In this document: in pieces, positions 1 through 19,914 of the stretch | Layout of the letters: every line of letters starts with the position of its first letter | Position numbering within the stretch: position 1 is the first letter of the stretch | Source: a virus | Taxonomy: Duplodnaviria; Caudoviricetes | Strand: one strand, 5' to 3' | Virus record (IMG/VR): IMGVR_UViG_3300023184_000512 | Span: 1-24,094 of that record | Length of the DNA: 24,094 bases | Made by a program: the position numbers and the translations under genes | Notes under the pieces: model-generated | Told to the model about the DNA's origin: nothing | What the model saw: the letters and a program-made list of their open reading frames with translations, nothing else | Database searches by the model: none

Positions 1-540
1 AATGAAGCCTTTATAGAGCAGATTGATTACCGTGCAACAGCAAAGCGAATTAAAAATGTTGTTGGTCTTCATCCCAAGTGGGCAGATGCCGTAGTTAAGT
101 TCGAGCAGCGCGAGTACACACGTCTAGTTAAGCAAGGCTTGAAAGAGGGAGCAGCCCGTATCAAGGCTCAGTCCAATGCTGCTACTTATTCTGACCGCTT
201 GCGTAGCGCTCGCGCTTCAATGATTGCTCGCACTGAAATTAACATTGCTCAAAACGAAGGCAGAATGCAGGGATGGAATCAGGCATTCGAGCAAGGATTT
301 ATTGACCCTGCATCACTTAAGATGTGGATGACTGCTAAAGATGAGCGCACCTGCGATGTTTGTGGTCCAATGGATGGCGAGATAGTTCCATGGAATGGCT
401 TATTCTCAACAGGCGATAAAGTCCCTGGGCGAGTTCATCCACACTGCCGTTGCTCAATGGTCATGCTGCCACCCAATGGTAAAGGTCAATCTTTCAAAGA
501 AAACTATGACCTACTCAATGAATTTATTGGGTGGGATTAA
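1..540 (+). CDS. MuF/gpF-like phage minor head (head morphogenesis) protein, 5'-truncated by window
   Basis: Frame 1 is open from base 1 to TAA at 538-540, so the ORF-track start at 139 is internal. Contains Phage_Mu_F signatures: RASMIARTE, W-x-T-x-x-DERTCDVCGPMDGE, HPHCRC. Confidence 0.9.
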   Translation, partial: NEAFIEQIDYRATAKRIKNVVGLHPKWADAVVKFEQREYTRLVKQGLKEGAARIKAQSNAATYSDRLRSARASMIARTEINIAQNEGRMQGWNQAFEQGFIDPASLKMWMTAKDERTCDVCGPMDGEIVPWNGLFSTGDKVPGRVHPHCRCSMVMLPPNGKGQSFKENYDLLNEFIGWD

Positions 541-1697
541 TGACATACGCAATTAAATTTCCAGTCGGATACAAGCCTGTAATCAAGCACGGTGAGCATG
601 ACCAGTCTTCTCACGGAAACTGGGCTGGGGATAGTGTTTCATTTAAGCAAGATAAGCATTTGCTGACAATGCAGGATAAAAGTGGAAAAACTTTGGCTTC
701 AATAGATTATGTTAATTTGGGATTTAACAAACTTGATATCAATTCAATAGATTCTTTTGATGAAGGCAAAGGTTATGCGACTAAAGTATTAGAAAAACTT
801 TATTCTTCATTTCCTGAGCATAGTATTTTTTGGGGCAAAACAATTGTTCCAGCGTCAACTCATTTGGCTGAAAAGTTTGCATCTAAGTATGGTCGAACAA
901 CTTATATCCCTTGGGGTGAAGGCGCTATTAATGGAAAAGAAATGGGCAAACTTTACGGGCAAGAGGAACCTGTAACAAAGCACGAAGGCGGAGGACACGA
1001 CCAGAAAACTCACGGTTCTTGGGCTACAGGTCAAAAGGGTGGAAGCGGGCTAAGCCATCGAGAGATGTTTGAGTTGAAAAGAAATCGCCAAGACCCTATG
1101 GTGAGAAAAGTTTATGAGGCTGAAGAAAAAAATCATAATCAGATTCAAGATAAAAATGCAGATATGCCATCTGCGCCAAATCGTGCGGACTTCACTGAAT
1201 ACTCTGATTACAACGATGCCTACAAAAAGTATTCGAAAGATTTTCTGAATTGGTCAAGGAAAGTCACTACTTCAGTTATATCCGATATTGGAAAAAAACA
1301 TTTAGACGGAACACCTAGAGGTGTTAATGGATATATCAGAGATGTGCTAAGACAAGATTGGTTTGTCGAGCAATTTGGAAAAGGTGGCGTTGCTGGAAAT
1401 AATCTTGAGGTTAAAGTCACTTCTGCTGGTGAGGCTGGGGCGTATCAAATTGGATTCAAGGGCGACCTGCCCGTAAGTATTTTGAGAGTAAATAGAGGCT
1501 ATTCCAAAGCCGAGCCTACTATCGTCCATGAGATTGCTCATTACGCTACAACGATTAGCGCGACTGCACCGCATGATGGACACGGGGTAGAGTTCGTGCG
1601 AAATCACATATTTATTTCTAGCAAAGTATTGGGACAAAGTTTTGCAGACCAACTTGAAGCAACATACAGAGAGGCAGGTATACCTCTTGGAGACTAA
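540..1697 (+). CDS. Two-module tagged effector: GNAT-like acetyltransferase + HExxH (SprT-like/zincin) metallopeptidase
   Basis: ATG at 540 overlaps the MuF stop (TAATG) and is preferred to GTG 531. Tag copies at 585 and 978. Module 1 has IDSFDEGKGYATKVL (GNAT acetyl-CoA motif A-like). Module 2 has IVHEIAHY...HDGHGVEF (HExxH plus downstream HG-x-x-F). Confidence 0.75.
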   Translation: MTYAIKFPVGYKPVIKHGEHDQSSHGNWAGDSVSFKQDKHLLTMQDKSGKTLASIDYVNLGFNKLDINSIDSFDEGKGYATKVLEKLYSSFPEHSIFWGKTIVPASTHLAEKFASKYGRTTYIPWGEGAINGKEMGKLYGQEEPVTKHEGGGHDQKTHGSWATGQKGGSGLSHREMFELKRNRQDPMVRKVYEAEEKNHNQIQDKNADMPSAPNRADFTEYSDYNDAYKKYSKDFLNWSRKVTTSVISDIGKKHLDGTPRGVNGYIRDVLRQDWFVEQFGKGGVAGNNLEVKVTSAGEAGAYQIGFKGDLPVSILRVNRGYSKAEPTIVHEIAHYATTISATAPHDGHGVEFVRNHIFISSKVLGQSFADQLEATYREAGIPLGD

Positions 1698-2478
1698 ATT
1701 TTACGGCTGGGAGATTGTTGACCCAATTCATCCTGATTTGATTCCTGAACCTCAAGTTGAAGAAGTTTTGAAGCATGGCTCCCACGACCAAAAGACTCAT
1801 GGCAACTGGGCTTTAAGTGAGAACTATCCAGATTTATTAACACTTGGAACATTTGATGAAGAATTTGAATACGATTCAGCGTTAATGACTTACAGCGAGC
1901 GCTATGGGGTGGACAAAGATGGCAAAATTGTTGGAGTTGAGACATTTGAGCATGATGCTATAGATAGTTATTCTCAAGAGGGGTATAAAAATATAAACGC
2001 GTTTCTTCGCAACCCAAGAGGTTTTGAAGGTTCTTATGAAATAAAATTTCTTCAAGAAAAGGTTGATGGGTTAGATTCTTTGATTGATAAGGCTCCAAAT
2101 ATGTTCGGAGATAAAACTTTATTTCGAGTCGTAGATAATTTTGTTTTAGCGCAGTTAGCCCCAGGCGACACTCTCAGAGATAAAGGTTATTTATCAACTA
2201 CACGAATAGATTTGACCAAAGATACGGATACTCGGGATGCGCTTGGCGAAATATATGACACACCTGATACGGTTGCTGTCATTCTTCCAAGCCCAACCAA
2301 AAGCGGTAAAGGAATTGCCGTAGACCTTTATCGAACCTCCGTCAATGATACGAGTTCGGTATCAGATAGAGAAAAGGAAGTTCTATTACCTCGCCAAACG
2401 GATTTGCTGTTTTTGGGATATAAAAGAGGTATAGGCTCTGAGGATAAGGTCGCAGTCTTTCAAAGGGTGGACAAATGA
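1687..2478 (+). CDS. Tagged ADP-ribosyltransferase (VIP2/Alt-like, R-S-ExE type)
   Basis: YSQEGYKNINAFLR helix, LFRV, GYLSTT, REKEVLLPR. Start placed at TTG 1687 (AGGT about 7 nt upstream) rather than 1642; start is uncertain. Tag copy at 1771. Confidence 0.85.
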   Translation: METKFYGWEIVDPIHPDLIPEPQVEEVLKHGSHDQKTHGNWALSENYPDLLTLGTFDEEFEYDSALMTYSERYGVDKDGKIVGVETFEHDAIDSYSQEGYKNINAFLRNPRGFEGSYEIKFLQEKVDGLDSLIDKAPNMFGDKTLFRVVDNFVLAQLAPGDTLRDKGYLSTTRIDLTKDTDTRDALGEIYDTPDTVAVILPSPTKSGKGIAVDLYRTSVNDTSSVSDREKEVLLPRQTDLLFLGYKRGIGSEDKVAVFQRVDK

Positions 2479-5400
2479 ATAAATTTAAGACCATTCTTGA
2501 AGATGTTGAAATTATTGTAGGTGTTAAAAAGCACGGTTCTCACAACCAAAAAACTCACGGCAACTGGGCAACAGGTGGCGAAATTGCTCACTGGAATCCT
2601 AATGACCCAGTTCCTGCATCTCCTCGTAACGCTGGAGGAATGACAGATAAGATATGGGAAAATTGGGAACATGGCGTAGATGGTGAGCAATACGTTGAGT
2701 TGTATCGCCAATATGCAGCAGAGGCTCTTGGACTTAAGGTTCCTGAAAGCGACATGGCTCCTGGGGGTTCTCTTAATTATTTAACCCAACGTGGATTCGG
2801 TGGCTCATCTACTCAAACCGCAAAGGGTCATGCTCTTGCAATATTAAAGGCTATTGCCAATGGCTCTCCAACTCAACCAGCCCTTTATCGCGGTGTAACA
2901 GAGTTAAAGAATGACCCAAATTCAACAGCGCTTGTACAACAACTTTCTAGTCTTAAGGCTGGCGATACGCTTGACATGCCACTTGTATCAACCACTCGTT
3001 CCCTTGGCGTCGCTGCTTGGTATGCAGCGGATAGAGTTCAATCAGGTTCATCCCCAATAATTATGAAAATTCAGGCTGGTGCTAAGGGTGTATCAATTGC
3101 ACCCGAAAAAAGTTATTACCAAGCAGACCATGAAGTTATTACAAGCGGAAAGTTTGAAGTTGTTTCAGTAAATCAGGTCAAGACACCATACTGGAAACGT
3201 GGAATTTTTGAACCTCGCAAAACAGTTTATACTGATGGAAGCGGTACAAGTTATGAAGTAGCGACATATTCACCTAAGAGATATACAAGTGCTGAGGCTA
3301 AAAACATTTGGAATACAGTTAGCGCTGGAAAGTTGCAATCTTTAGCCACATCAAAATTCAAACTTACTGATGATAGAAGCAAGAATCCAAACCGTACAGT
3401 TTATTCAAGTTGGGATTTGCAAGCACCAACTGAGTTCACTATCGTGGAGGTTAAGATGATTGAACCTCATGTAGTCCAAAAGTCAATTGACCATGGAATG
3501 AAGTTCGATTCATTATTTGCTGGACGTCCACAATATGATGCAGCACCGCTCGAGAAGCACGGAAACCATGACCAATCCAGTCACGGCAACTGGGCTACTG
3601 GTGAATTATCCGAGGAACAAAAATCTGTTGTATCAGCATGGACTTCGTTAAGCAATAAAACTTCTTGGAGAGAGATTGCAAATGATTTGTCCGAAGGTAA
3701 AACTCCAAATGCTTCAGAAGATGACATTAAAACAGTTAAAACCCTTGTTGATGCAATTAAACAAAATGGAGTTATTCCAGCCGAGGCTCTTGGTCGTGCT
3801 GAATTATTAACTACTGGATTGCGCTGGCAAGGTGCTTTACCTAAAGTCGGAGATACATTAAAAAATGAATTGAGTTCAGCAACTCTTGATGAAAGAACAT
3901 CTGAAAGATTCTCGCAGTATTCAGATTTTGGTGGTTCTAAAGGGAAGCCAGTTATTTTCCATTATGGTTTCCAAACTAAAGGATTAGATGTTAATAGGGC
4001 TGGAGCAGATAATTTTGCCGATGAACAAGAATGGCTTGTATCAGGTACATTCAAAATTACTGAAAGATATTCAGAAAATGGAATTACGCACATAAATCTA
4101 AAACTTGTTGATGAGGTTAAAAAGCACGGCTCTCACGACCAAAAAACCCACGGTAGTTGGGCTAATGGTGGCAGTGGAAAAACAGTTACTGGTCTTATCA
4201 ATAAACTCAGCGAAAAGAGAAGCCCCGGATTCTCTATTGATTTGCGAACTGGGGCATCCCCAAAAGATGGTTTTATAGCCTCAGATATGGGTGCCGAGGA
4301 AGCGATGCCTTGGAAAGAGGCTAGTAAGACTCGAGATAATCTTCGCAATGTAATGGTAAATTACATGGATAAACACGCTGAGTTGCTAGATGGCTCAGGA
4401 GCATTCTTTGGCGGTTGGGTTGACGAGGGAACACTCTTTTTGGATGTTTCGCGTAGATATCCAACGCGTTCTGAAGGCGTAGCAGCAGGTTTTGCTAATC
4501 AGCAAAAAGCAATATACGATGTCGTGAACGATTCGTATATCTATATGAAGGATGAGGTAGATGGAAGAACCAACAAAGCCCGTAATGATAGAAGTACCGA
4601 AGGCAATCAAGGATATGACCAAGGAAGAGAAACTAGCCTTCGCGGACAAAATAATCGACGCAATGACGGGCAACCGTTAACTTTTCCTCATGTTTGCTTA
4701 GGCAGATATCAAGTTCAAAAGCATTTAGAGGGACAGCATGACCAAGGAACTCACGGCAACTGGGCAGGGGATAGATACCCTACTGATTCAGTTAAAAGCG
4801 CAAGAGACGGCGCTAAAGAATATGCCTTTAAGAAAGGCTTAGAGCCTGACGAGACAATTGATTACACAAAGGTTGTAGCAAACCGTGAACGCGCATCAAA
4901 GATAGCCGATGTCTACGAGGACCTACCTAAGATGGATAGGGACGCAGTAGATGAGTACGAGGCATTAGCCTCAGAAGTAGAACAGCAGTTCGATTTCATG
5001 ACCAAGAATCTTGGAGTAAAAGTTTCCTTTGTTGCTGAAGACCCGTACAAGACTTCTAAAGAGATGTTTGATGATGTAAGCAAGGGAAACCTAAAGGTCT
5101 TATCAACTGCATCAACAGGTGCTCATCCGCTATTTAGTAATGAGCAGAATGACAAGTTTAGAGCAGTTCATGATTACTTTGGACATGCTGCAACTGGGCG
5201 TGGATTCGGTCAAGATGGCGAAGAGGCTGCGTGGGTTCATCACTCACAAATGTTTACAATGGATGCTCGCGCAGCATTGACTACTGAGACCCGTGGGCAA
5301 AACTCTTTCTTCAATAATCGTGGCAAGCAGTTCGCTGACCAAAAGGTTGCATTGTTGCCTTCTGAGTTTTGGGAAGTTCCAGCAGTATTTACAAAATTTA

Positions 5401-6695
5401 GAGCAATTCGTTTTGCGTTTGGACTAAAGCCTATCTTCAAGCACAGTGGTGGAGAAGCACATGCAGGTGGCGATGACCAATCTTCTCACGGCAACTGGGC
5501 GCGTGGAATCTCTGCTGAAGATGAAGCACTTATTAACGAGATGGAGAATTTAGGTCCATCGCTCCAAGATTTAGAAAATGCTCTGACACCTGCCGAACAA
5601 CCTGACTATACCGACTTAAAAGATTATGTTAATAACGATGCGGGTATGTACGAGGCAGCCATTGAAGGAATTGACGAAAGAGTTGCCGAGCGACTTAAAA
5701 ATTTACAAGAAGAATTTCCTAACCATGAATACACAGAGCAAGAAAAAACAACCATTTATGAAGATATGCAAAATGAAATGATTCAAGAATATATTGATAA
5801 TGATGACGGCACCATTGCTCAATTATGGCAAGAACAAAACGGTGAAGAATTTAACCCTGAAGATTTACATACCTTCTTTGATGATGTTTATGCCATGGAT
5901 TATGATGTTAAAAATGCTCAGGGTGAGGTTGCCACCACTCTTAGTTCATCAACAAATAACATTTATCTTGATGGTCAGAGGCTGGTTGTAACTGGTGAAA
6001 TCACGGATGATGCTGGTAACTATGCTGGAGAGTTCCAACGCGGCTTCTTCAAAAGCCAAGACAAACAAGGCAATGAGATTTGGGCTGTAGAGCATGACCT
6101 ATTCAAAATGGAAGATGAATATGCTGGAGTTGGATTCGGCTCCAAATTTATAGCCCGACAAGAGGCTTGGTATGTAGCGGTAGGCATTGGCAGAATTGAT
6201 GTAGGCACAGCATGGGATGGCGCTCGCCATTGGGCTAAGTCAGGTTTTGACTTTGATGAAAGAAATATGCGTGAAAATGTAAGTCAGTTGATAGGTGGGA
6301 GAATAAATAATTCTGCTGATTTTGGTGAGGGTTCAACAAATCGTCTTGAGTTTGATTCTTTAATGTCAAAAATGGTTACTGATTACACCCCAATTTTTAG
6401 GGTATTTACCTCATTCAAACCAATTACCTCGGAGGATTTTCCTATCCCGAATGATTTCTTGATGATTGGCTATAAAGATAGAGTTCAAATAGACACTAAT
6501 CGCATTACGGGAAAACCCGTATATTCGTGGGCTGGGGCAAGATTGCTTAATAACCTGACCATGAAGTATCAAAAAGGCTTGACCAAAGAAGGACGCACTA
6601 TCCAGCAAGGTCCAATTGACCGAGATGGCGATGGTTTGGTCTATGACGGCACCCCTCGCGAAAAGCCCGCTCCTACGGTAAACTCATCACCATGA
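2475..6695 (+). CDS. 1406-aa polyvalent effector polyprotein: ART-like, ART-like, unknown domain, HDxxGH zincin-like domain, acidic helical + GNAT-like domain, C-terminal DxDxDG motif
   Basis: ATGA overlap with the upstream gene. Tag copies at 2529, 3555, 4122, 4719 and 5439 split it into five modules. Motifs: LYRGV/VSTT/DHEVI; LSSAT/DEQEWLV; GGW...LDVS...NQQKAIYD; FRAVHDYFGH...GEE; YAGVGFGSKF...GARHWAKSGFDF; DRDGDGLVYDGT. Confidence 0.85.
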   Translation: MNKFKTILEDVEIIVGVKKHGSHNQKTHGNWATGGEIAHWNPNDPVPASPRNAGGMTDKIWENWEHGVDGEQYVELYRQYAAEALGLKVPESDMAPGGSLNYLTQRGFGGSSTQTAKGHALAILKAIANGSPTQPALYRGVTELKNDPNSTALVQQLSSLKAGDTLDMPLVSTTRSLGVAAWYAADRVQSGSSPIIMKIQAGAKGVSIAPEKSYYQADHEVITSGKFEVVSVNQVKTPYWKRGIFEPRKTVYTDGSGTSYEVATYSPKRYTSAEAKNIWNTVSAGKLQSLATSKFKLTDDRSKNPNRTVYSSWDLQAPTEFTIVEVKMIEPHVVQKSIDHGMKFDSLFAGRPQYDAAPLEKHGNHDQSSHGNWATGELSEEQKSVVSAWTSLSNKTSWREIANDLSEGKTPNASEDDIKTVKTLVDAIKQNGVIPAEALGRAELLTTGLRWQGALPKVGDTLKNELSSATLDERTSERFSQYSDFGGSKGKPVIFHYGFQTKGLDVNRAGADNFADEQEWLVSGTFKITERYSENGITHINLKLVDEVKKHGSHDQKTHGSWANGGSGKTVTGLINKLSEKRSPGFSIDLRTGASPKDGFIASDMGAEEAMPWKEASKTRDNLRNVMVNYMDKHAELLDGSGAFFGGWVDEGTLFLDVSRRYPTRSEGVAAGFANQQKAIYDVVNDSYIYMKDEVDGRTNKARNDRSTEGNQGYDQGRETSLRGQNNRRNDGQPLTFPHVCLGRYQVQKHLEGQHDQGTHGNWAGDRYPTDSVKSARDGAKEYAFKKGLEPDETIDYTKVVANRERASKIADVYEDLPKMDRDAVDEYEALASEVEQQFDFMTKNLGVKVSFVAEDPYKTSKEMFDDVSKGNLKVLSTASTGAHPLFSNEQNDKFRAVHDYFGHAATGRGFGQDGEEAAWVHHSQMFTMDARAALTTETRGQNSFFNNRGKQFADQKVALLPSEFWEVPAVFTKFRAIRFAFGLKPIFKHSGGEAHAGGDDQSSHGNWARGISAEDEALINEMENLGPSLQDLENALTPAEQPDYTDLKDYVNNDAGMYEAAIEGIDERVAERLKNLQEEFPNHEYTEQEKTTIYEDMQNEMIQEYIDNDDGTIAQLWQEQNGEEFNPEDLHTFFDDVYAMDYDVKNAQGEVATTLSSSTNNIYLDGQRLVVTGEITDDAGNYAGEFQRGFFKSQDKQGNEIWAVEHDLFKMEDEYAGVGFGSKFIARQEAWYVAVGIGRIDVGTAWDGARHWAKSGFDFDERNMRENVSQLIGGRINNSADFGEGSTNRLEFDSLMSKMVTDYTPIFRVFTSFKPITSEDFPIPNDFLMIGYKDRVQIDTNRITGKPVYSWAGARLLNNLTMKYQKGLTKEGRTIQQGPIDRDGDGLVYDGTPREKPAPTVNSSP
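4561..4680 (+). CDS. Nested out-of-frame 39-aa ORF inside the polyprotein (MEEPTKPVMIEVPKAIKDMTKEEKLAFADKIIDAMTGNR), candidate immunity peptide
   Basis: +1 frame relative to 2475..6695. AAGGA 8 nt before the ATG. Protein-like amphipathic sequence, while the host frame reads as an R/G/N/Q-rich linker over the same interval. Confidence 0.65.
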   Translation: MEEPTKPVMIEVPKAIKDMTKEEKLAFADKIIDAMTGNR

Positions 6696-6838
6696 ACAGA
6701 CAAGAGAGATTAGACGCCTTATCAAAACTCCATGCCTCCATGCCTGTTGAGATGGAAGGCTTACCCGACGATAATGAGGTGGCTTTCTTGGACAAAGTAG
6801 TAGAGCAAAAACTAACTTTGGTTGAAAAGACTAAATAA
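6692..6838 (+). CDS. 48-aa hypothetical protein (MNRQERLDALSKLHASMPVEMEGLPDDNEVAFLDKVVEQKLTLVEKTK), candidate immunity protein
   Basis: ATGA overlap with the polyprotein stop. Fills the gap before 6870. Not in the supplied ORF track. Confidence 0.65.
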   Translation: MNRQERLDALSKLHASMPVEMEGLPDDNEVAFLDKVVEQKLTLVEKTK

Positions 6839-6857
6839 CAGTTGAAATTCTATCCGC

Positions 6858-6863
6858 TATCCT
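6858..6863 (+). promoter_or_regulatory. Possible -10 element for leaderless expression of ORF 6870
   Basis: TATCCT (TAnnnT) 6 nt before the ATG; no SD and no well-spaced -35. Confidence 0.3.
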
Positions 6864-6869
6864 TTACAC

Positions 6870-9077
6870 ATGGCGGATATTGCATCTAAACTAATTAATC
6901 TGAGCGCAGAGAAACTTCTCACGCTCCATGAGAACCTTCACAAATCTATGGCTCCTACGGCTGCCGAGATTGAGGTACACCACACGGTCCTCAACGAGAT
7001 GGCTCGTCGCAAGATGTCTCGCCCTCAAGACTCATGGGATGAGTTCGAAATCCTTGTAGATTCAATTAAAGATGTTGACCTGACCTCTCTCGCCTCCTCG
7101 TTACCTGAAGGAATGGTTGAAGATGTAATTAAGACAACTGGGAGTCCAATTGGAAATGTCGATACCTATCTAACAATTGATGGCTATGAAATGCGTATCG
7201 AGCCAGTTGAATTTGACCCTATGGAAAAGATGATTCGTGAAGAGGGTGGAAAGTACACAGTTTACGATTCAACTGGAAAGCGAAAGTTTGGTACATACAG
7301 TTCAGAGAAAGAGGCTCAAGACCGCCTTGACCAAATTCACCGATTCTCAAAGGCAGATAACACTCCTCCTAAATCAGTTCGAGATGCAGCGCGTCGCGCC
7401 CTAGATTGGATTGCTGATGGAAAGGCTGGCAGTGGATTCACAGCAGTTGGAAAGCACCGCGCTTCGCAATTAGCAGCGGGAGAATCAGTATCTATTGAAA
7501 CTTTGAAGAGAATGAAATCATTCTTCTCTCGTCATGAAGTTGATAAGAATGCTCTTGGATTTACTCAAGGCGAAAAAGGTTATCCATCCGCTGGTCGAGT
7601 TGCTTGGGATGCTTGGGGCGGAGACGCAGGATTTGCATGGGCTGAGTCCATGGTTGCTCGCGCCGAAAAAGAAGAAGTTGTAAAACATAATCCTGGGCAA
7701 CACGACCAAAAAACTCACGGTAAATGGGCTGATGGAATTGCTGAAGCAATTTTGGCAGGTGGTCACCCTGAAGTAGAACCTGAGAATCTATCTGCTTTCT
7801 TGATGAAAGCATCAAAGCGAACAGACCATCCTGATTTAACGGAGTTAAGCATCAAGGGAACATTGCTATATGGCGATGAAGGAATGGGAATTGCTCGTAA
7901 AGATATGCCTCAAATTCCTGGAAAAGAACGCGCTCGCTTCTTATCTGAGATTGAAGCCAAATTAGGTGTTACGGCTGAGAAAGAAAAGATTGACCCAACC
8001 ACTCTCAAGCCAGTTCAGAAAGAAATTTCTGCTTCTCGTTCAGGTGCTATCTATAATAAATTCCGCGAAGATGGCAAGATTCCAAAAGATGAACGAATTC
8101 TTATTTCCAAAGATGGTTACGTTATTGATGGACACCATACATGGGGCGCTGCTGTTGCATTTGCATTTGATAATCCTGGAACTGAGTTGCCTGTCTATCG
8201 TCTTTCAGTAACAGCAAAAGAGGCACTAGATATTTCACTAGACTGGTCAACAAAGAATGGTTTTGAAGGTCAAGCAATTGATGCACCCGCTAAGAAAGCA
8301 CTTATTTGGAAACATGAAGGTGGCGGGCATGACCAAAAGAAACATGGTGCATGGGCTGCTGGTTCTTCGGCGTATGCAGATGATGTTGCTCCAACAAAAG
8401 AGCGCTCAGCAAAGGCTGTTTCACTTGCGAGCGCTATCCGTGACCGCTCAGTTAAAATTGAACCACAGGTCACAGAGTTAGTAAATACTTTTGCTAAAAA
8501 CGCTGATGGAAAACTCATGGGATTAAGCCAACGCCTAAAGTCAACAGATTCACTTGCTCGAAAGATTGATGCAGATGCTGCAAAGGAGCATGAAGGAAAT
8601 CACGAGAAGGCTGCTGAAGGAGTATCAGATGCAATTCGTTACACCATCAAAGTTTCTGATGCAAACTATGCAGATGGATTAGATGCAACAGTAAAGGGTC
8701 TTGAAGCAACTGGCTGGAAAGTCCGCACCAAAAACTTTTGGACGGCTGGAGACCCATATGATGGGGTCAATATCAAGGCTGTGAAGAATGGCGTAGCAAT
8801 TGAGATTCAGTTGCACACACCAAAATCACTTGAAGTAAAAGAAGGAAAACTTCATAGGGTTTATGAGAAGTACCGTGTGTCTACAGACAATCAATACCGT
8901 ATCGCCCGATGGGATGAGATGGTTGTAATGGCTAAGCAAATTCCTCGCCCCGATAACATGCCAAAAGTTTTAGGAATCGGCTCCCTTGAGGTTCAGCGCT
9001 TTGAAACTGCTGAAGAGGCAGGATTGACTAAATCAACCCCAGTTGATATACTCCAAAACGAGAGAGGAGGAGAATAA
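6870..9077 (+). CDS. 735-aa multi-module head-associated polyprotein: helical N-terminus, two small conserved-looking head modules, tagged ParB/Srx-like domain, tagged RelA/SpoT-like (alarmone synthetase-like) domain
   Basis: Tags at 7683 and 8310. ParB-like: LKPVQKEI...ILISKDGYVIDGHHTW. RelA/SpoT-like: RLKSTDSLARKI, DAIRYT, KNFW...YDGVN, EIQLHT, HRVYEKYR. Confidence 0.85.
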   Translation: MADIASKLINLSAEKLLTLHENLHKSMAPTAAEIEVHHTVLNEMARRKMSRPQDSWDEFEILVDSIKDVDLTSLASSLPEGMVEDVIKTTGSPIGNVDTYLTIDGYEMRIEPVEFDPMEKMIREEGGKYTVYDSTGKRKFGTYSSEKEAQDRLDQIHRFSKADNTPPKSVRDAARRALDWIADGKAGSGFTAVGKHRASQLAAGESVSIETLKRMKSFFSRHEVDKNALGFTQGEKGYPSAGRVAWDAWGGDAGFAWAESMVARAEKEEVVKHNPGQHDQKTHGKWADGIAEAILAGGHPEVEPENLSAFLMKASKRTDHPDLTELSIKGTLLYGDEGMGIARKDMPQIPGKERARFLSEIEAKLGVTAEKEKIDPTTLKPVQKEISASRSGAIYNKFREDGKIPKDERILISKDGYVIDGHHTWGAAVAFAFDNPGTELPVYRLSVTAKEALDISLDWSTKNGFEGQAIDAPAKKALIWKHEGGGHDQKKHGAWAAGSSAYADDVAPTKERSAKAVSLASAIRDRSVKIEPQVTELVNTFAKNADGKLMGLSQRLKSTDSLARKIDADAAKEHEGNHEKAAEGVSDAIRYTIKVSDANYADGLDATVKGLEATGWKVRTKNFWTAGDPYDGVNIKAVKNGVAIEIQLHTPKSLEVKEGKLHRVYEKYRVSTDNQYRIARWDEMVVMAKQIPRPDNMPKVLGIGSLEVQRFETAEEAGLTKSTPVDILQNERGGE
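9024..9052 (+). promoter_or_regulatory. Near-consensus sigma70/sigmaA promoter inside the 3' end of the RelA/SpoT-like gene
   Basis: TTGACT (9024-9029), 17 nt, TATACT (9047-9052), with an extended TG at 9044-9045. Lies upstream of the GAGGAGG SD of ORF 9080. Confidence 0.7.
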
Positions 9078-9079
9078 AT

Positions 9080-10075
9080 ATGCGTTACTTTGTAAAGACT
9101 GATATCAATTTTCAGCCTGTGGTGCTCTATCGCTTCAATCTTGACGTACCCGATAGCATTTCAGAAGAGATATGGAAACCGATTGCTAATACTTGGGAAC
9201 CATCGGAAAGAATCGTTGAAGTTCTAACTCAAGGCTCAGCAGATTTTGACGAAGTAAGCGAAGAGTTGGCTCGCAAAACCTTCCCTGATGCTTTCTCGGA
9301 AGTGGCTAAATCAATCGGAGAGTACGAAGTATCCAAGGCTGAAGGCGACAAGCGTTACACGCTAGGAGCCATGTATATCCCCGACCGCTTAGATGCTCAT
9401 GGCGAATGGACAGATGCCGAAGAGTTGCAAAAAGCGGTTTGGGATTATGTTCGAACAGATGACCGTCGAATCCGACTTCAGCACAACCGCGATATCGTGG
9501 CTGGAGAATGGGTCGAGGTTATGGCTTTCCCATATGAGTTGACCGTGCCAATTAGCACCCCATCAGGAATTGAAGTAAACCATACCTACCCGCCAAACAC
9601 TGTTTTTCTTGGAGTTGTTTGGGAACCTTGGGCATGGGAAAAGATTCAAAACGGTGAAATTCTTGGTTATTCTATTGGTGGTCGTGCTGAGCGTTTATAC
9701 GTTGATATGGAAAAGGCAGATGGACCAACAGTTTCTGATGTCCATGTTGATACAGTAATGAATCAACCAAAGAAAAAGAAAAAGGTCATCCAAGATGAGG
9801 AAGTCCTAGTAGAAAAAGAAAAGCCAATCGATATTAAGGCTTTAACTGATTCAATTATTGAAACTATTAAAAAGGACATGCCCGCTCCAGTTGAGCCAGT
9901 AATCATAGAAAAGTCACCTACAATTGACATTGAAGCAATGATGATTAAACTTGCGGAAATAATGTCCGCTAATCAACCTGTCATCAATGTTGTAATGCCT
10001 GAAGAAAAACCTAAAAATCGAAAAATTGAACGGGATGAATTCGGCAATATTTCAAGAATTATTGAGGAAGAATAA
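9080..10075 (+). CDS. XkdF-like putative serine prohead protease with an extra ~75-aa N-terminal immunity-like domain and an acidic C-terminal tail
   Basis: Strong SD GAGGAGG. Protease core from ~9338: [39 protein letters not shown] (Peptidase_S78_2/XkdF pattern). Confidence 0.8.
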
Positions 10076-12354
10076 TGTCTACAAATTATCCATCGGGGAT
10101 AGATAATTTTACAAATCCAACACCTACAGACAATTTAGATTCTGTAACGGTTCCCCATGCACAACAACATGCAAATGCTAATGATGCAATTGAAGCAATT
10201 GAAGCAGAATTAGGAACAAATCCTAAAGGCAGTAGTGCATCAGTAAAAGACCGTTTACTGGCAATTGAAGCATCGGTGTCAAATACGGTGGGTCCAACTG
10301 GAGCGACTGGTCCCGCAGGTCCAACAGGTCCAACTGGTCCCGCTGGCGCAGTAGGAGCAACGGGCGCAACGGGTGCTCAAGGAATTCAAGGTATTCAAGG
10401 AGATATTGGTCCAACAGGACCAACGGGCGCTACTGGCGAGCAAGGCGCAACTGGCTCTATTGGTCCAACGGGTGCTCAAGGCGCAACGGGTGCTCAAGGA
10501 GCAACGGGTGCAAAAGGTGATACTGGAGCAACTGGCGCAGGTGGTGCGTTAGGTTATTACGGCGCATTTTCTAGTTATCAAGACCAAACAATTGCGAGTT
10601 CAACAACTGCTTATGAAATGATTTTTGAGCAGACTGATGAAAACAATGGCGTTCGAATGGTTGCCAATGGTGGTGGAAATAAAACCAAAATAACCTTTGA
10701 TTATGCAGGAACTTACAATGTTCAATGGTCAGGTCAATTTGAAAATAGCGATACTCAAGAACACGATGTAAAAATTTGGTTGCGTAAAAATGGTGTAGAT
10801 GTTGCTGGCTCAACTGGACTTGTTGCAGTTGTTTCAAAACACGGTGGAGTTAACGGTCACACATTGCCATCATGGAATTTTGTGTTCACAGTTGCTGCTG
10901 GAGATTATTACGAATTTGTATGGAGTAGTGATACCACTGTTAGTCTTCAAACATACGCTGCATCTGCAAGTCCAACGGCTCCAACAACTGCAAGTTTAGT
11001 TTTAACCGTAACTCAGGTGATGTATACACAAGTTGGACCAACAGGTTTAACTGGCGCAACAGGTCAGCAAGGCGCGACGGGTGCTCAAGGCGCTACTGGC
11101 GCTCAAGGAATTCAAGGTATTACTGGAGCAGTTGGTTCAACAGGTCTTCAAGGTGCTACAGGTGCTAACGGTACTAATGGAATTGATGGTGCAACGGGAG
11201 CAACGGGAGCAACAGGGGCAGTTGGTGCTACGGGAGCAACAGGTCCTCAAGGAGTAAAAGGCGATACAGGCGCAACAGGTCAGCAAGGCGCGACGGGTGC
11301 AACAGGTGCTAACGGCACTAACGGTACAAACGGAATTGACGGAGCAACTGGAGCGACTGGTCCCGCTGGAGCAACTGGCGCAACAGGAGCGACTGGAACT
11401 AACGGAACTAACGGAACTAACGGAACAGACGGCAAGACAGTTAGGAACGGCTCAGGTGCGCCTTCGGCTGGACTTGGGGTTGATGGCGATTTCTACATAG
11501 ATACAACTAACAATTTAATTTATGGACCAAAAACTGCTGGAGCATGGGGAACTGGAACTAGCATAATCGGTCCAACTGGTTCTACGGGAGCAACTGGCGT
11601 AACAGGTGCAGTTGGCGCTACAGGAGCCATAGGAGCAACAGGGTCTACAGGCGCTGTTGGAGCAACAGGTTCGACTGGCGCAACTGGTCCTCAAGGAATT
11701 CAAGGAGATGTAGGTCCCGCTGGAGCCACAGGAGCAACTGGAGCAGTAGGAGCAACAGGTCCTCAAGGTGCAACAGGTGCAACTGGCGCAACAGGAAATA
11801 ATGGTACTGATGGTAAGACAGTTAGAAATGGCAGTGGAGCACCATCATCGGGATTAGGTGTTGATGGCGATTTTTATATTGATACCACAAATAATCTTAT
11901 CTATGGTCCAAAAACTGCTGGCGCTTGGGGAAGTGGTACAAGTTTAATTGGTTCAACGGGCGCGACGGGTGCAACAGGCTCTCCTGGTACAAATGGCACA
12001 AATGGCACAAATGGTACAAATGGAGCCACTGGCGCGACGGGTCCTCAAGGCGCTACTGGAGCAACGGGGGCTGCTGGTACTAACGGGGCTACAGGAGCAA
12101 CTGGAGCAACTGGGCAAGGTGTTCCAGTTGGCGGTACAACTGGACAAGTATTAGCAAAAATAGATGGCACTGATTACAACACTCAATGGGTTGCACAAAC
12201 TGGTGGTGTAACACAAATTATTGCTGGAACTAACGTCACAATTAGTCCCACAGGTGGAACTGGTGTAGTTACTATTAACTCATCAGGTAGTGGCGGTGGC
12301 GGAAGCGCAGTAGACTCAGACCAAAACATATTAGCAACTCAGGTATTTGGATAG
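10075..12354 (+). CDS. Collagen-like fibre protein with central C1q/TNF-like beta domain
   Basis: Long G-X-Y runs (GAT/GPT/GAQ) interrupted by YYGAFSS...[11 protein letters not shown]...WLRKNG and by a duplicated 50-aa unit. TAATG overlap with the protease stop. Confidence 0.85.
11422..11952 (+). repeat. Duplicated 150-nt (50-aa) non-collagen unit in the fibre gene
   Basis: 11422-11571 and 11803-11952 both encode [15 protein letters not shown][35 protein letters not shown], with many synonymous differences. Confidence 0.9.
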
Positions 12355-12363
12355 GATAAAACA

Positions 12364-12726
12364 ATGGCAACTTTTACAAAGGTAGCATTTTCAGGCGCAA
12401 CAGACGGTTCACCAATTAAGGTTGTGGCAACTGCATCGGCTGGTACAACTATCCACACAACTGGCACATCATCATCAATCTTTGATGAGATTTGGCTTTA
12501 TGCTTACAACTCATCTACTGGTCCAATTTTGCTAACTGTTCAATACGGTGGTACTGCAACACCTGACGATGACATTAAAATTACTATTCCTTCACAGTCA
12601 GGTTTGACACTAATAGTGCCAGGGCTTATCTTGGCTGGTACAGGTTCAGCAGGTAATACAGTTGCAGCCTATGCAGGAACTGCAAATGTGGTCACAGTTT
12701 CAGGTTATGTAAACAGGATTTCGTAA
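12364..12726 (+). CDS. Small beta-rich virion structural protein
   Basis: 120 aa, T/S/A/G-rich, AGGA upstream, lies within the fibre gene block. Confidence 0.7.
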   Translation: MATFTKVAFSGATDGSPIKVVATASAGTTIHTTGTSSSIFDEIWLYAYNSSTGPILLTVQYGGTATPDDDIKITIPSQSGLTLIVPGLILAGTGSAGNTVAAYAGTANVVTVSGYVNRIS

Positions 12727-13644
12727 ATGGCTAACCCGATTCGTAGAGGCGAATCTAGTTCGCAAGTTTCTAGTTGGGCGCAAAGTGACATAGTTACACC
12801 AAACGCACAGACATCTTTCATACTTCCACACGGCTTAACCCTTAGACAAACAATTAACGCAGGTACAACCTCAGTGACAATCCCCGCTGGTATTACTTGG
12901 GTTTATGCAATCTGTGTTGGTGGTGGTGGTGGCGGTCAAAGTAGCAATATTGACAAAGGTGGCGGGGGCGCTGGTGGAATTGCTTGGGGTTGGACATTGG
13001 CTAATTCAACTTGCGTTGTCGGCACTGGCGGCGGTTACACGCGCTATGGTCATATTATTGCTGGTCCAGGTGGTAATGGTGGCGCAGGTGGTACTGGAAG
13101 CGCTGGAATTTTAGGTGCGGCAGGCGGTGGTGGTGGTGCAGCAACAGGTGGTTCAGGTTCAACTAATTATTATGGAATACCTGGTGGCACCGCTGCAAAT
13201 AATACAAATGGAACTGTAGGTGCTGGTGCTGGTGCTGGTAGTTCTTCAAGTACTTCAAATCCAACTAACGGTGGTAATGGTATTTCAGGTGGTGGTGGTG
13301 GAAGCAATAACATCGGTGTTGCATTTCAAGTAGCAGGCAACGGCGGTTCAGGTTTAGCAGGTGGTGGCGGTGGTAAAGCACAACACGCATCTATTGCAGG
13401 TAACGGCGGCACAGGCGGTAATGGAATAAACATTTTGACTGGTGCAACAACTACTGGTGGCGCTGGCGTATCTTTTACTGCTGGCGGTACTGGCGGTGGC
13501 GGTGGTGGGGCGGGTGTAGCAGGTAACGGAAGTGCTGCTGTTGGTGCTGCTGGCGGTGCAGGCGGTTTAGGCGGCGGTGGTGGTGGCGGTGGAACTACTA
13601 CAAGCGGCGTTGGCGGCGCAGGAATTCTTTATATTTTCTACTAA
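12727..13644 (+). CDS. Glycine-rich virion protein (paralog 1)
   Basis: VTIPAGITWVYAICVGGGGGG start of the Gly-rich domain; ends GAGILYIFY. Confidence 0.8.
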   Translation: MANPIRRGESSSQVSSWAQSDIVTPNAQTSFILPHGLTLRQTINAGTTSVTIPAGITWVYAICVGGGGGGQSSNIDKGGGGAGGIAWGWTLANSTCVVGTGGGYTRYGHIIAGPGGNGGAGGTGSAGILGAAGGGGGAATGGSGSTNYYGIPGGTAANNTNGTVGAGAGAGSSSSTSNPTNGGNGISGGGGGSNNIGVAFQVAGNGGSGLAGGGGGKAQHASIAGNGGTGGNGINILTGATTTGGAGVSFTAGGTGGGGGGAGVAGNGSAAVGAAGGAGGLGGGGGGGGTTTSGVGGAGILYIFY

Positions 13645-13653
13645 GGAGATAAA

Positions 13654-14688
13654 TTGTCAAACATATTTCGTAAGACCAAAGTAGGTACGCAAGTATCTTC
13701 TTGGCAACAATCTTCTAATACAGTCACGCCTAATCAACAAACATCTTTCTTTTTGCCACACGGTTTGACCTTGCGCCATAAAGTTGGTCAAGCAGATATT
13801 ACAAATGTAACTGCTTCTGCTGGCGTTGTTACTTATACGGCTGCAAATAATTATTCTGCTGGTGATATTGTTAGTATCTACAATGTTACTCCAATTGCTT
13901 ACAATTTAAGAGTAGCAACAGTTCGTTCTGCAACTTCAACTCAGTTTACTATAACTAGCGCTGCAACTGGCACTTTTGTATCAGGTGGAATTGTGCAAAA
14001 AATGGGTTATATGTCTGTAACAATTCCTAGTGATATTACTTGGGTATATGCAATCTGTGTCGGTGGCGGTGGTCAAGGTGGTGGTTATAATGGTGGCGGT
14101 GCTGGTGGTGCTGCTTGGGGTTGGACACCTGCTGCTCCATTTTGTTTGATTGGTACTGGCGGAAATAATGCTGGCTTTGGTGGCGGTTCCACTCGTTATG
14201 GCTTGATAATTAGCGGACAGGCTGGCGGTGGTTCGTCAAGCGTTAATGGCTATTATGGCGGAGGAAGTAGCGGTGGTGTTGGTGGGAGTACAAATATGTG
14301 GGGTATGCCTAATGCTGGAGGAGCAGGAAACTCTGCAAATGCAATCTCAGGTGGTGGTGGACTTAATGCAACAGCAATACTTGGTCAAACAGTTACAGCA
14401 GGTAATGGCGGTTCAGGTTTAGTTGGCGGTGGCGGAGGAAGTACAAGTGGCGCTGGTACTTGCATTGGCGGAAACGGTGGAAACGGTGTCAATATAATAA
14501 CTGGAGTTTCCACTACTGGTGGTACTGGTACTACTGGTAGCGGTGCAGTTGGTGCTGGTGGTGGTGGTGCAGGTGTTGTTACTAATGGAGGCGCTGGTAG
14601 TACAAATAACGGTGGTCTTGGCGGTGGCGGAGGCGGTAGTAGTGGTAATGGTTGGGGTGGCGATGGCATACTTTACATTTTCTACTAA
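13654..14688 (+). CDS. Glycine-rich virion protein (paralog 2) with one inserted beta module
   Basis: TTG start with AAGGAG SD. N-terminus similar to paralog 1 (QVSSW...TSF-x-LPHGLTLR); ends GDGILYIFY. Confidence 0.8.
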   Translation: MSNIFRKTKVGTQVSSWQQSSNTVTPNQQTSFFLPHGLTLRHKVGQADITNVTASAGVVTYTAANNYSAGDIVSIYNVTPIAYNLRVATVRSATSTQFTITSAATGTFVSGGIVQKMGYMSVTIPSDITWVYAICVGGGGQGGGYNGGGAGGAAWGWTPAAPFCLIGTGGNNAGFGGGSTRYGLIISGQAGGGSSSVNGYYGGGSSGGVGGSTNMWGMPNAGGAGNSANAISGGGGLNATAILGQTVTAGNGGSGLVGGGGGSTSGAGTCIGGNGGNGVNIITGVSTTGGTGTTGSGAVGAGGGGAGVVTNGGAGSTNNGGLGGGGGGSSGNGWGGDGILYIFY

Positions 14689-14700
14689 GGAGAGCAAACA

Positions 14701-16506: not shown

Positions 16507-16515
16507 GGAGTAACA

Positions 16516-16722
16516 ATGGCAACATTTGCAGTAATGAGTGGAAATGTGGTTTCAAGCGTCATCGTTGCAGACAATAAAGAAGAAACCGAGGCATCGTTAG
16601 GTTTAACTCTTATTGAATACACACCTGAAAACTCTGCTGGCATTGGTTCATTTTATGATGAGGCAACAGGCAGATTTGTAGCCCCACCAGCGCCAGCGGT
16701 ACAGGAAATAATTCAAGAGTAA
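16516..16722 (+). CDS. Small acidic protein following Gly-rich fibre genes (possible fibre assembly chaperone)
   Basis: AAGGAG SD. Pattern FAV...V-x-x-VIVAD...AGIG-x-x-YD...F-x-x-P, of the kind that trails phage Gly-rich genes. Function inferred. Confidence 0.65.
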   Translation: MATFAVMSGNVVSSVIVADNKEETEASLGLTLIEYTPENSAGIGSFYDEATGRFVAPPAPAVQEIIQE

Positions 16723-16934
16723 TGTATACCTATGATAGCCCCATTCTTTACAATGAATTAAATTTTCCTTATAACGGATTGTTAGAACCAATCCAAAGAA
16801 AAATTTCAAATTTCATTCCTACATTTACTGGTCCGCCAAGAGATTCCCATGGTCAATCCAAGGCTTCTATTTTATTATGGGATAAGAGAAACAAAGATGA
16901 AGAAGAATTATTAAGCCTACTTGGTTATTTTTAA
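16722..16934 (+). CDS. Hypothetical protein, 70 aa
   Basis: TAATG overlap. Tyr-spaced N-terminus and acidic DEEELL C-terminus. Confidence 0.55.
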   Translation: MYTYDSPILYNELNFPYNGLLEPIQRKISNFIPTFTGPPRDSHGQSKASILLWDKRNKDEEELLSLLGYF

Positions 16935-16958: not shown

Positions 16959-17378
16959 ATGAAAGATAAAAAGATTCTCAAAGAACTACGCCTTGGTCCT
17001 ATGAAAAGCATGAAGGACGAAGAGTATGCCATGATTGAGGAAGAGGTCAATCAAAAGGGAATCGCTGGTCTTAAAGGCTATGCAAAGTCAATAGTTGATA
17101 AGTCTATGCGCGAAATGGCTTACGCAATGAAAAAGATTGCTGTTGCAAAGCATGGCAATCACGACCAAGGAAGCCACGGCGCTTGGGCTAATGGGAAATA
17201 CAATACAGATGATTCTGAAGGCGAAGACAGTTCAGAGCCAAAAAACTATAAGAACAAAAAGCCAAAGATTAGTTATGAAGAAAATGACACAGAGGGTGAG
17301 TTCGACAATAACGCCGATGACCCTAGGTGGATGGATGACATGGATATTCTCCATCCTCCAAAGCGTTCTCCCAAGTAA
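16959..17378 (+). CDS. 139-aa protein carrying the 11th His-tag copy followed by an acidic disordered tail
   Basis: VAKHGNHDQGSHGAWA at 17148-17189. No SD; extended -10-like element 7 nt before the ATG. Confidence 0.75.
   Translation: MKDKKILKELRLGPMKSMKDEEYAMIEEEVNQKGIAGLKGYAKSIVDKSMREMAYAMKKIAVAKHGNHDQGSHGAWANGKYNTDDSEGEDSSEPKNYKNKKPKISYEENDTEGEFDNNADDPRWMDDMDILHPPKRSPK
17148..17189 (+). repeat. 11th copy of the KH...HDQxxHGxWA repeat
   Basis: AAGCATGGCAATCACGACCAAGGAAGCCACGGCGCTTGGGCT = KHGNHDQGSHGAWA. Confidence 0.95.
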
Positions 17379-17744: not shown

Positions 17745-18524
17745 TTGGCAAATCGCACCCGCAAAATGGTGAATCTCGCCATTGAGGAAACGAGTGGGGT
17801 AGACCATCCCGCTCACCTACATGAAGGTTGGTTGGTTATGAAATCAGCCGATGAATCTGAAGTTCAGAGGGTAATGGACGAAACGCTCACCGAGGAGGAC
17901 TCCAATATGGAGGAAGTAACTACCACGGCTGTTGAAGAGCAGGTCGAAAAGGCTGATATGACTATGGAAGAAGCAATGAAAAAAATTGCTGAACTAGAAG
18001 CCAAATTAGCAGAATCCGCTAAAGAAGATGCTGCTGAACCAGCGATGGCAAAAGCAGTGGATACTTCAGAGGATTTCTTGAAGTCGGCTCCCGAAGCAGT
18101 TGTAAAAATGATTGACGACCTTCGCAAACAAGCAGAAGATGCAACAGCGGAACTTGCAAAAGAACGCGATGCTCATGCAGATGCAGAAGCAGTCGAAAAG
18201 GCAAAGGGTTGGGCAAACCTCAATCTCGATGCAGAAAAAGTTGGACCAGCGCTTCGTCGCTTGGCATCAACAGATGCAGACCTTGCAAAGTCAGTTGAAG
18301 AAATTCTTTCTTCAATCAATGCACAGGCTGAATCAGCAGCAATTTTTGCGGAAATCGGCAAATCCGCAGATTTCAAGAGCGGTGATGCTTATGGTCGTAT
18401 GACGGCTATGGCAAAGTCTGCTGTTGAAGAGGGTGTTGCAAAGTCATTTGAGGTCGCACTCGCTGACATTGCATCAAAAAATCCTGACCTTTACAGCCAA
18501 TACCTAACCGAGAAAGGTGCCTAA
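17745..18524 (+). CDS. Capsid scaffolding protein
   Basis: TTG start with AGGAG SD. N-terminal NLAIEETSGVDHPAH...VMKS motif, then an acidic E/A/K-rich coiled coil. Directly upstream of the decoration and capsid genes. Confidence 0.8.
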   Translation: MANRTRKMVNLAIEETSGVDHPAHLHEGWLVMKSADESEVQRVMDETLTEEDSNMEEVTTTAVEEQVEKADMTMEEAMKKIAELEAKLAESAKEDAAEPAMAKAVDTSEDFLKSAPEAVVKMIDDLRKQAEDATAELAKERDAHADAEAVEKAKGWANLNLDAEKVGPALRRLASTDADLAKSVEEILSSINAQAESAAIFAEIGKSADFKSGDAYGRMTAMAKSAVEEGVAKSFEVALADIASKNPDLYSQYLTEKGA

Positions 18525-18936: not shown

Positions 18937-19914
18937 ATGCCACAGCCAAATATCAATAGCGTCCACATTGACGCAATTCTTACAAACATTTCTGTTGCTT
19001 ACCTTCAGAATCAAGATAACTTCATTGCCGACAAGGTATTCCCAGTAATCCCTGTCGATAAGAAGTCAAATAAGTATTTCACTTATGACAAGAACGACTG
19101 GTTCCGTGACGAGGCTCAACGCCGTGCTCCGGGAACAGAGTCTGCTGGTGGTGGATATTCTCTATCATCTGCAACATACTCAGCAGATGTTTTTGCTTTC
19201 CACAAAGATGTCGATGACCAAACAATTGCTAACGCAGATACACCTTTGAACCCTCTTCGTGAGGCAACAGAGTTCGTAACTCGTCGTCTAATGCTCCGTC
19301 GTGAACTTCAGTTCGTAAATGATTTCTTCACAACAAGCGTATGGGGAACAGACATCACAGGTGTTGCTGGAACTCCAACAACAGGTCAGGTCAAGCAATG
19401 GTCAGATTACACAGCATCAGACCCAATCAATGACATCGAAAACGGAAAGTCAGGCATCCTATCTACAACAGGTATGGAAGCAAACACTCTCGTTCTCGGA
19501 TACGACGTATTCAAGGCTCTAAAGAATCACCCTGACCTTGTAGACCGTATCAAGTACACATCTTCACAGACAATTACAACAGATATGCTCGCTGCTATGT
19601 TCGATGTACCGCGTGTTATCGTTGCTAAGGCTGTTAAGGCAACAAACAATGAAGGCGCAACAGGTGCATATAGTTTTGCATTTGGTAAGTCAGCACTTCT
19701 TTGCCACGTTGCTCCAAACCCAGGACTACTTACACCTTCAGCGGGTTACACATTCGCATGGACAGGTGTTTCAGGTGGACTTAACGCAACTATCGGTACT
19801 TCACAGTTCCGTATGGAGTCAATCAAGTCAGACCGCATTGAAGCGGAAATGGCATTTGATAATAAGGTAGTAGCCAATGACCTTGGTTATTTCTGGACAT
19901 CAATCGTCGCTTAA
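18937..19914 (+). CDS. Major capsid protein
   Basis: 325 aa, AAGGAG SD, visibly biased codon usage. HIDAILTNISVAY...FIADKVFPVIPV...RAPG N-terminus typical of gpE-like capsid proteins. Followed by a terminator. Confidence 0.88.
   Translation: MPQPNINSVHIDAILTNISVAYLQNQDNFIADKVFPVIPVDKKSNKYFTYDKNDWFRDEAQRRAPGTESAGGGYSLSSATYSADVFAFHKDVDDQTIANADTPLNPLREATEFVTRRLMLRRELQFVNDFFTTSVWGTDITGVAGTPTTGQVKQWSDYTASDPINDIENGKSGILSTTGMEANTLVLGYDVFKALKNHPDLVDRIKYTSSQTITTDMLAAMFDVPRVIVAKAVKATNNEGATGAYSFAFGKSALLCHVAPNPGLLTPSAGYTFAWTGVSGGLNATIGTSQFRMESIKSDRIEAEMAFDNKVVANDLGYFWTSIVA

Follow-up and report, generated by a model that had tools for sequence, protein, structure and literature searches.

The head module and its recurrent tag

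The DNA described here is a stretch of 24,094 nucleotides (positions 1 to 24,094 of the IMG/VR virus record IMGVR_UViG_3300023184_000512, referred to throughout as the window) that holds the head module of a tailed phage, with the end of a MuF minor head gene, four large open reading frames (ORFs), an XkdF-type prohead protease gene and genes for a probable scaffold, a cement protein and the major capsid protein (Table 1). A short His-rich peptide, which we call the tag, recurs within the four large ORFs, each copy standing before an enzyme-like module and directly behind a hydrophobic-x-Lys sequence that is the predicted cleavage site. The tag core, H-x(2-9)-[HD][DN]QxxHGxWA, matches the window 11 times with at most one mismatch when searched as a degenerate DNA pattern, whereas the same pattern has no match in any of 100 dinucleotide shuffles of the window; the copies also emerge as a DNA repeat family (D3). 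Ten copies lie between MuF and the XkdF protease (two, one, five and two in cargo proteins 1 to 4, respectively), as an earlier preliminary description of this DNA had reported, and the eleventh is in a 139-residue ORF upstream of the scaffold gene. Hydrophobic-x-Lys followed by His is present at all 11 copies, the ten triplets listed previously being joined by VAK at the eleventh.

Table 1. Genes, cargo modules and tags in the head module of the window. A slash marks the predicted cleavage site.
Feature	Position	Strand	Sequence or basis
MuF minor head protein, C-terminal part; start outside the window	139..540	+	PF04233, E 4e-13; ORF end
Cargo polyprotein 1: tag, GNAT-like module (624-980), tag, HExxH metallopeptidase-like module (1023-1694)	531..1697	+	
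Site and tag 1	579..626	+	VIK/HGEHDQSSHGNWA
Site and tag 2	972..1025	+	VTK/HEGGGHDQKTHGSWA
Cargo protein 2: tag and VIP2/Alt-like ADP-ribosyltransferase (1810-2475); start codon uncertain	1642..2478	+	PF03496, E 2e-10
Site and tag 3	1765..1812	+	VLK/HGSHDQKTHGNWA
Cargo polyprotein 3, five tagged modules: ADP-ribosyltransferase-like (2568-3557), ADP-ribosyltransferase-like (3594-4124), unknown (4161-4721), HDxxGH (4764-5441), GNAT fold (5499-6692)	2475..6695	+	Profile links, AlphaFold model, fold comparison
Site and tag 4	2523..2570	+	VKK/HGSHNQKTHGNWA
Site and tag 5	3549..3596	+	LEK/HGNHDQSSHGNWA
Site and tag 6	4116..4163	+	VKK/HGSHDQKTHGSWA
Site and tag 7	4713..4766	+	VQK/HLEGQHDQGTHGNWA
Site and tag 8, long variant	5433..5501	+	IFK/HSGGEAHAGGDDQSSHGNWA
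48-residue ORF after polyprotein 3; putative inhibitor or spacer	6692..6838	+	ORF list
Cargo polyprotein 4: untagged N-terminal part, tag, ParB-like module (7728-8312), tag, small alarmone synthetase (8355-9074)	6870..9077	+	phrog_2859
Site and tag 9	7677..7730	+	VVK/HNPGQHDQKTHGKWA
Site and tag 10	8304..8357	+	IWK/HEGGGHDQKKHGAWA
XkdF-type prohead serine protease; five hydrophobic-x-K/[AS] sites	9080..10075	+	PF14550, E 4e-13
Small tagged ORF without recognized enzyme	16959..17378	+	
Site and tag 11	17142..17189	+	VAK/HGNHDQGSHGAWA
Probable scaffold protein; nine hydrophobic-x-K/[AS] sites, tag absent	17745..18524	+	Precedes cement and capsid genes
Major capsid protein	18937..19914	+	phrog_1005

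The same kind of site is found in the untagged protease and scaffold proteins of the window, where hydrophobic-x-K-[ASG] occurs 14 times against 2.55 expected; the scaffold sites have A or S at P1′, the position following the predicted cut. An AlphaFold model of the product of 4098-6692 (built from 83 sequences) has three confident domains, with the tags forming linkers between them rather than folding onto them; the three tags lie in segments with a predicted local distance difference test score below 50 (residues 1-25, 158-223 and 430-468). Such a placement would be expected of exposed cut sites and of short linear motifs.

The tag does not belong to a named family that we could recognize, as the preliminary description had also supposed. 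Searching 99 tag stretches against Pfam gave just two single matches, with E values of 0.17 or worse, and a tag profile searched against the PDB had a best E value of 1.4, although short motifs are hard for such searches; NCBIfam and PHROGs searches with the whole ORFs yielded no name for a tag family. No description of the motif was found in the literature searched, a body that excludes most subscription journals and the supplement of PMC5512222, and the tag is thus apparently undescribed.

Distribution of the tag among phages

IMG/VR was searched with a pattern containing only the tag core, returning an estimated 380 stretches, and relatives of the capsid protein were fetched separately. The K-H that lies upstream of the core was not part of the pattern, and K-[HF], nearly always K-H, is present in 497 of 506 distinct, largely related tag contexts; the P3 residue is V, L, I, M or F in 92% of contexts, and a spacer of two or four residues is seen in 483 of the 497 that have K-[HF]. 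There are 465 distinct 30-nt cores, and in the window 120 of 310 same-residue pairs differ in codon. Because synonymous codons vary freely at the invariant residues, selection appears to act on the peptide and not on the DNA; a DNA-level repeat was rejected.

All 375 of the contexts that can be placed are in the head module, lying between MuF and scaffold genes or, where fewer markers are visible, on the side that fits this order (a further 131 cannot be placed). Of the loci selected by their capsid gene, 24 extend far enough upstream, and all 24 have tags. Five near-complete genomes contain 51 matches, of which 50 are clustered together, the sole exception being in a small gene beside terminase, next to a second variant tag. 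The earlier view of the tag as portable is supported, and the tag is confined to head and packaging genes. In locus L372 (17073-18205) two small tagged genes come directly after the gene for the large terminase subunit, at a distance of 18 kb from the main cluster.

The number of tags in relatives ranges from 2 to at least 16 (33 long loci examined), on single genes or in polyproteins, and in some relatives tagged modules are fused to the portal, the protease or, as in L012 and L026, to MuF; small tagged ORFs without a recognized enzyme are also seen beside the scaffold gene. Capsids, portals and protease families differ widely among the tagged phages. The tag itself is not constant at its end, since HGRR, HNP and HGNR tails occur, and the terminal Trp is not invariant.

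A tblastn search of one tag against cultured phages gave a single match (E 6), and a tag profile run over five cultured genomes gave one 7-residue match. Among 39 loci from bacterial genomes, four are genuine, all with Actinomycetota titles, and 35 were set aside as chance matches because they are off-frame or lack head context. A prophage of the cultured Streptosporangium longisporum (L307, 6848-9222) has tags of the E type, described below, on two related modules and is a possible experimental system.

The residue before the tag and the prohead protease

The residue preceding the tag (P1) is R, E, F, Y, A or L in other phages. These non-K tags were recovered from outlier phages and from two scans excluding Lys codons, which yielded 114 loci; 42 of these were carried into the P1 analysis, and most of the 80 loci from one of the scans were judged to be chance matches, being off-frame or without head context. 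Within a locus P1 agrees in 98 of 101 pairs, compared with 25% expected if residues were pooled, in a set of 18 non-K multi-tag loci (the non-K loci include L760 and L779, which are one contig, and the close relatives L785 and L792). P1 also follows the protease: K occurs with XkdF in the window clade, L012, L318 and L304, R with Peptidase_S78 in all 11 loci whose protease could be identified, E in four of four loci with a protease-scaffold family that has no name (assigned by position and mutual similarity), and F, Y or A with Mu-like proteases in four loci, three of these assignments being weak or indirect.

Uniformity of P1 within a genome and its association with protease family are both predicted if each phage has one protease, and we consider it very likely that cleavage occurs just before His1. 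Cleavage after Lys by the prohead protease, as envisaged in the preliminary description, is likewise very likely for the window, judging from the protease and scaffold sites and the P1 covariation. The HK97 protease cleaves after Lys; no paper on XkdF specificity was found in the literature searched. The tag is not, however, restricted to head modules with XkdF-type proteases, a restriction raised previously, since it is also found beside S78 and Mu-like proteases and an unnamed one, with a different P1.

Predicted cargo modules

Evidence for the nature of the modules varies. The small alarmone synthetase of RelA/SpoT type is a firm assignment (8vx3, E 1.5e-27), and the HDxxGH module is 47% identical to mycobacteriophage Bxz1 gp104. 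The GNAT-like module of polyprotein 1 has a profile link to a Pfam-positive GNAT cluster, and the GNAT fold of polyprotein 3, recognized by both Foldseek and VIA-align, is the sole one recognized of the three modeled domains, the other two having been barely tested. The two ADP-ribosyltransferase (ART)-like modules of polyprotein 3 have profile links only (E 8e-8 and 5e-6), and a PDB profile search with one of them gave no match. SprT-like and TIGR04338 matches to the HExxH module are both below cut-off, the ParB-like module has a weak domain match, and an Atlas search found only unnamed viral clusters. Each of the ten tags does precede a module of its own, but the claim of ten different and unrelated effector domains was too strong, as three are of the ART family and two are GNATs.

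BLAST groups the 537 modules into 96 clusters, among which truncated singletons are numerous, and Pfam searches with 119 representatives add Zeta toxin, DRAT, DUF3626 and Hva1-Tudor domains. Modules are evidently exchanged: one module family is preceded by many different neighbors across phages, and of the 21 close relatives of the ART module, 20 have an alignment that begins no earlier than the tag region. Many tagged modules, notably of the GNAT family, close with a D-x-D-G-D-G motif (32 cases, including window 6615-6680 and several modules in L203), which we presume to be calcium-loop-like. In polyprotein 4, two small untagged domains follow hydrophobic-x-K sites at 7227-7680, and visual inspection showed similar sequences in L345 and L013 head proteins.

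Comparison with known systems

Ejection proteins of T4 and SPN3US are cleaved by prohead proteases (gp21 and gp245, respectively), with removal of the targeting peptide in T4 (PMC7411985), and T4 gp21 cleaves at I/L-x-E (PMC12991175). As with T4 IPI-III and Alt and their SPN3US counterparts, the window is predicted from its sequence to encode head-packaged effectors, including an ART, that share a short signal and a hydrophobic-x-P1 prohead-protease site. That site is common to tags, protease and scaffold (11 of 11 tags; 14 sites against 2.55 expected in protease plus scaffold). The T4 signal, however, stands on the N-terminal side of the cut and, once removed, exits the head, whereas the window tag is C-terminal to the predicted cut and would stay; leaders upstream of the window tags are heterogeneous, and the tag, unlike the T4 signal, is repeated within polyproteins before each domain. 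The earlier analogy to a T4-like targeting peptide is therefore apt for a signal adjoining a protease site, but not for its removal.

Polyvalent proteins are large multidomain late-gene proteins with ART, GNAT, zincin, ParB-like and RelA/SpoT domains that are predicted to be co-injected with DNA, their processing being ascribed to internal zincin peptidases (Iyer et al. 2017, PMC5512222). They resemble the cargo proteins in combining disparate enzymatic domains in one polypeptide (as in polyproteins 3 and 4) and in being encoded among head genes or fused to MuF or portal, as in the window and its relatives; neither a repeated inter-domain tag nor a prohead-protease code was found in PMC5512222. 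Polyvalent Pfam domains (ART-PolyVal, LPD and MPTase types) have no match in the window ORFs, and ART-PolyVal matches tagged L344 proteins. ART and Nudix domains fused to head proteins have been reported (PMC9503650); in the supplement of that paper neither of two tag strings nor XkdF was found.

MuF polymorphic toxins are single fusions (Jamet et al. 2017, PMC5576092; PMC7302621), and the words 'cleav' and 'motif' are absent from the main text of PMC5576092. They share with the window system the locus and a common alarmone-synthetase-type domain (phrog_7625), and differ from it in that the window MuF, as previously stated, has no toxin, ending without a C-terminal extension, and in that many effectors per phage are carried on separate genes. 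A single small ORF follows a cargo gene in the window, the 48-residue one listed in Table 1, which we considered as a putative immunity ORF.

XkdF has been named as a head-processing peptidase (PMC7824862), and the closest cultured XkdF proteases are those of Laroyevirus and related Arthrobacter phages. In sum, the tag system is real and widespread, and from its sequences is a retained-tag variant of protease-processed head cargo, the processing being predicted.

A model for tag function

The tag, its spacing, its location in the head module, the shuffling of modules and the covariation of P1 with protease are direct observations, and we propose a model for them to which we assign a probability of roughly 0.6. 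The four ORFs would be strings of swappable enzyme-like modules that are loaded into the prohead, where the XkdF protease would cut after hydrophobic-x-Lys, separating the modules and leaving the tag as the new N-terminus of every freed effector. The tag would then keep the effector in the maturing head and subsequently route it out with the DNA. Loading, cleavage and ejection are steps that we infer, the first two being well supported by comparison. Retention of the tag on the cargo follows from its position downstream of the predicted cut, and His1 appears to be demanded by the tag because scaffold sites take A or S at P1′. The fixed distance from the cut and the provision of one tag per module suggest that the tag acts on the released pieces.

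The partner of the tag is the least certain part of the model; we favor the packaged DNA or a conserved surface on the portal side, to which a metal bound by the freed N-terminal His might contribute. Either would be more economical than MuF or a specific pocket on the capsid, because the tag is retained in phages whose capsids, portals and proteases are only distantly related, and because one tagged genome that is 96% complete (one of two near-complete records) has no PF04233 match, which speaks against MuF as an obligatory docking partner. In a His-brace a free N-terminal His amine and a second His hold a metal, a site of which, in our assumption, the N-terminal His of the tag is reminiscent. 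Predicting a complex of the tag with the portal and capsid proteins of the relative L015, in the presence of Zn, gave a score of 0.00, which counts neither way.

The foremost alternative, which we regard as unlikely, is that the tag serves to dock the precursor in the prohead before it is cut, as an encapsulin cargo peptide or the T4 targeting sequence does, and is idle after cleavage. Restriction of the tag to the head module, the small enzyme-less tagged ORFs beside the scaffold gene, and the occurrence of related motifs in scaffold-like acidic low-complexity proteins (by eye; see below) are all in keeping with such docking. A single tag per polyprotein would then suffice, yet every module is tagged; the short fixed spacing to the cut and the near-invariant His1 would be left without a reason, and the capsids, portals and proteases with which a docking peptide would coexist are widely different. 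Less probable still is that the tag is a device for processing and shuffling only, an extension of the protease site on its prime side that doubles as a shared DNA recombination junction. The alignment of ART-module relatives from the tag region onward, and the presence of one module family behind many predecessors, are as this would have it, but the tag is kept over four protease families while P1 switches, it is absent from the protease and scaffold sites, and the free synonymous variation noted above points to selection on the peptide. We likewise think it improbable that the tag works in the host cell, protecting or targeting injected effectors or silencing them in the producing cell until cleavage, for although some of the modules are predicted to be toxic (ART, alarmone synthetase, Zeta toxin and GNAT) and most modules lack an obvious immunity ORF, one 12-residue peptide is unlikely to inhibit effectors of unrelated folds and targets, the modeled tag is not folded onto its own domain, and small ORFs without a recognized enzyme are tagged too.

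Several observations weigh against the proposed model of tag-led retention and exit. The 506 tag contexts come mostly from one clade and, being related, are not independent. The pairing of P1 and protease is not one-to-one, as S78 is also found beside A (two loci) and K (one locus), and in a site-enrichment test the P1 of the tag was the top residue in just 8 of 19 phages (two of three with K, all four with E, the one with A, one of eight with R, weakly, and none of three with F/Y); the failures, comprising most R and all F/Y phages, often involved testing of only a short protease ORF, and they were not rescued by site patterns devised post hoc for the F, Y and R phages, which were weak. Polyprotein 4 is in part untagged, and sibling tags (see below) lack the N-terminal His, weakening a general role for metal. 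Finally, the Laroye-type cultured phages have the same head module and Lys-type sites, but no tag was found in them, and the HDxxGH module in Bxz1 gp104 is untagged, from which it follows that the tag is an optional system and not a requirement for head cargo.

In Bxz1 gp103-104 (L375, 9873-13071) repeated R-x-A sites separating the segments were noted by eye, which suggests that these proteins are cargo processed in a similar way but untagged. A spacer of the form I-x-F-x-x-G-[LY]-K-P recurs before many tags, as a gene leader or an internal linker (66 cases; window 540-587 and 5397-5441), and is a candidate loading peptide that would be removed.

The choice, retention and ejection of internal proteins are known for only a few tailed-phage models, whereas here one peptide of 12-16 residues is found in unrelated phages on dozens of enzyme modules that can be exchanged, and the preceding residue reveals the likely protease specificity of each phage. 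If confirmed, the tag would provide a sequence rule for virion-delivered effectors, probably anti-host or anti-defense enzymes, would make prohead-protease specificity predictable from genomes, would allow the way in which cargo leaves the head behind the DNA to be tested simply, at the level of a peptide, and would be a candidate for a portable loading tag.

Sibling motifs

Other motifs share the slot of the tag, sometimes in the same polyprotein. P1 is K in 117 of 146 contexts of K/[FYA]NPYHDxxGRF and in 60 of 128 contexts of K/Y[SN]PDQxRDxxGRF, and the sibling classes end in G-[RNS]-[FW] about 11-14 residues past the predicted N-terminus, a rule from which distant HDQ tags may depart by ending in HGRR or HNP. 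The GRF-type siblings are also found in acidic low-complexity proteins that look scaffold-like by eye, and they may resemble the GRF minor-groove hooks of NF-YA/CCT proteins. DQxRDxxGRF, NPYHDxxGRF, GHPFRGNQW and CPTGxGGGID were seen in the tag slot in L020 (6530-13641), L203 (476-6775), L012 (6599-14101) and L345 (7406-9421), and L020 has one hybrid tag.

A broader and more tentative reading, possible but in our estimation short of an even chance, is that tailed phages have a general 'cut, then tag' code in which the tags are a family of hooks binding packaged DNA or the portal exit. The prohead protease would expose hooks of 11-14 residues ending in G-[RNS]-[FW], in the classes HDQ, NPYHD-GRF, DQxRD-GRF and GHPF-GNQ, and whatever enzyme is attached to them would enter the cell together with the genome. 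Being portable and independent of protease family, such a hook could then be used to load proteins of choice into the heads of unrelated phages.

Host and neighboring genes

The host is probably actinobacterial, because the genuine bacterial loci are from Actinomycetota, a relative encodes a WhiB-like protein (by eye), and the cultured proteases nearest to the XkdF protease of the window are from Arthrobacter phages. Between the protease and scaffold genes the window has a 7-kb block (10075-16934) with collagen-repeat and Gly-rich genes, whereas in most relatives the protease gene leads to the scaffold gene directly or via one small tagged ORF. In the Laroye-type Arthrobacter phages (L347, 14381-15502; L348; L350) the XkdF protease is annotated as an RNA ligase or aldolase and the MuF-like gene as a capsid maturation protease, both likely misannotations.

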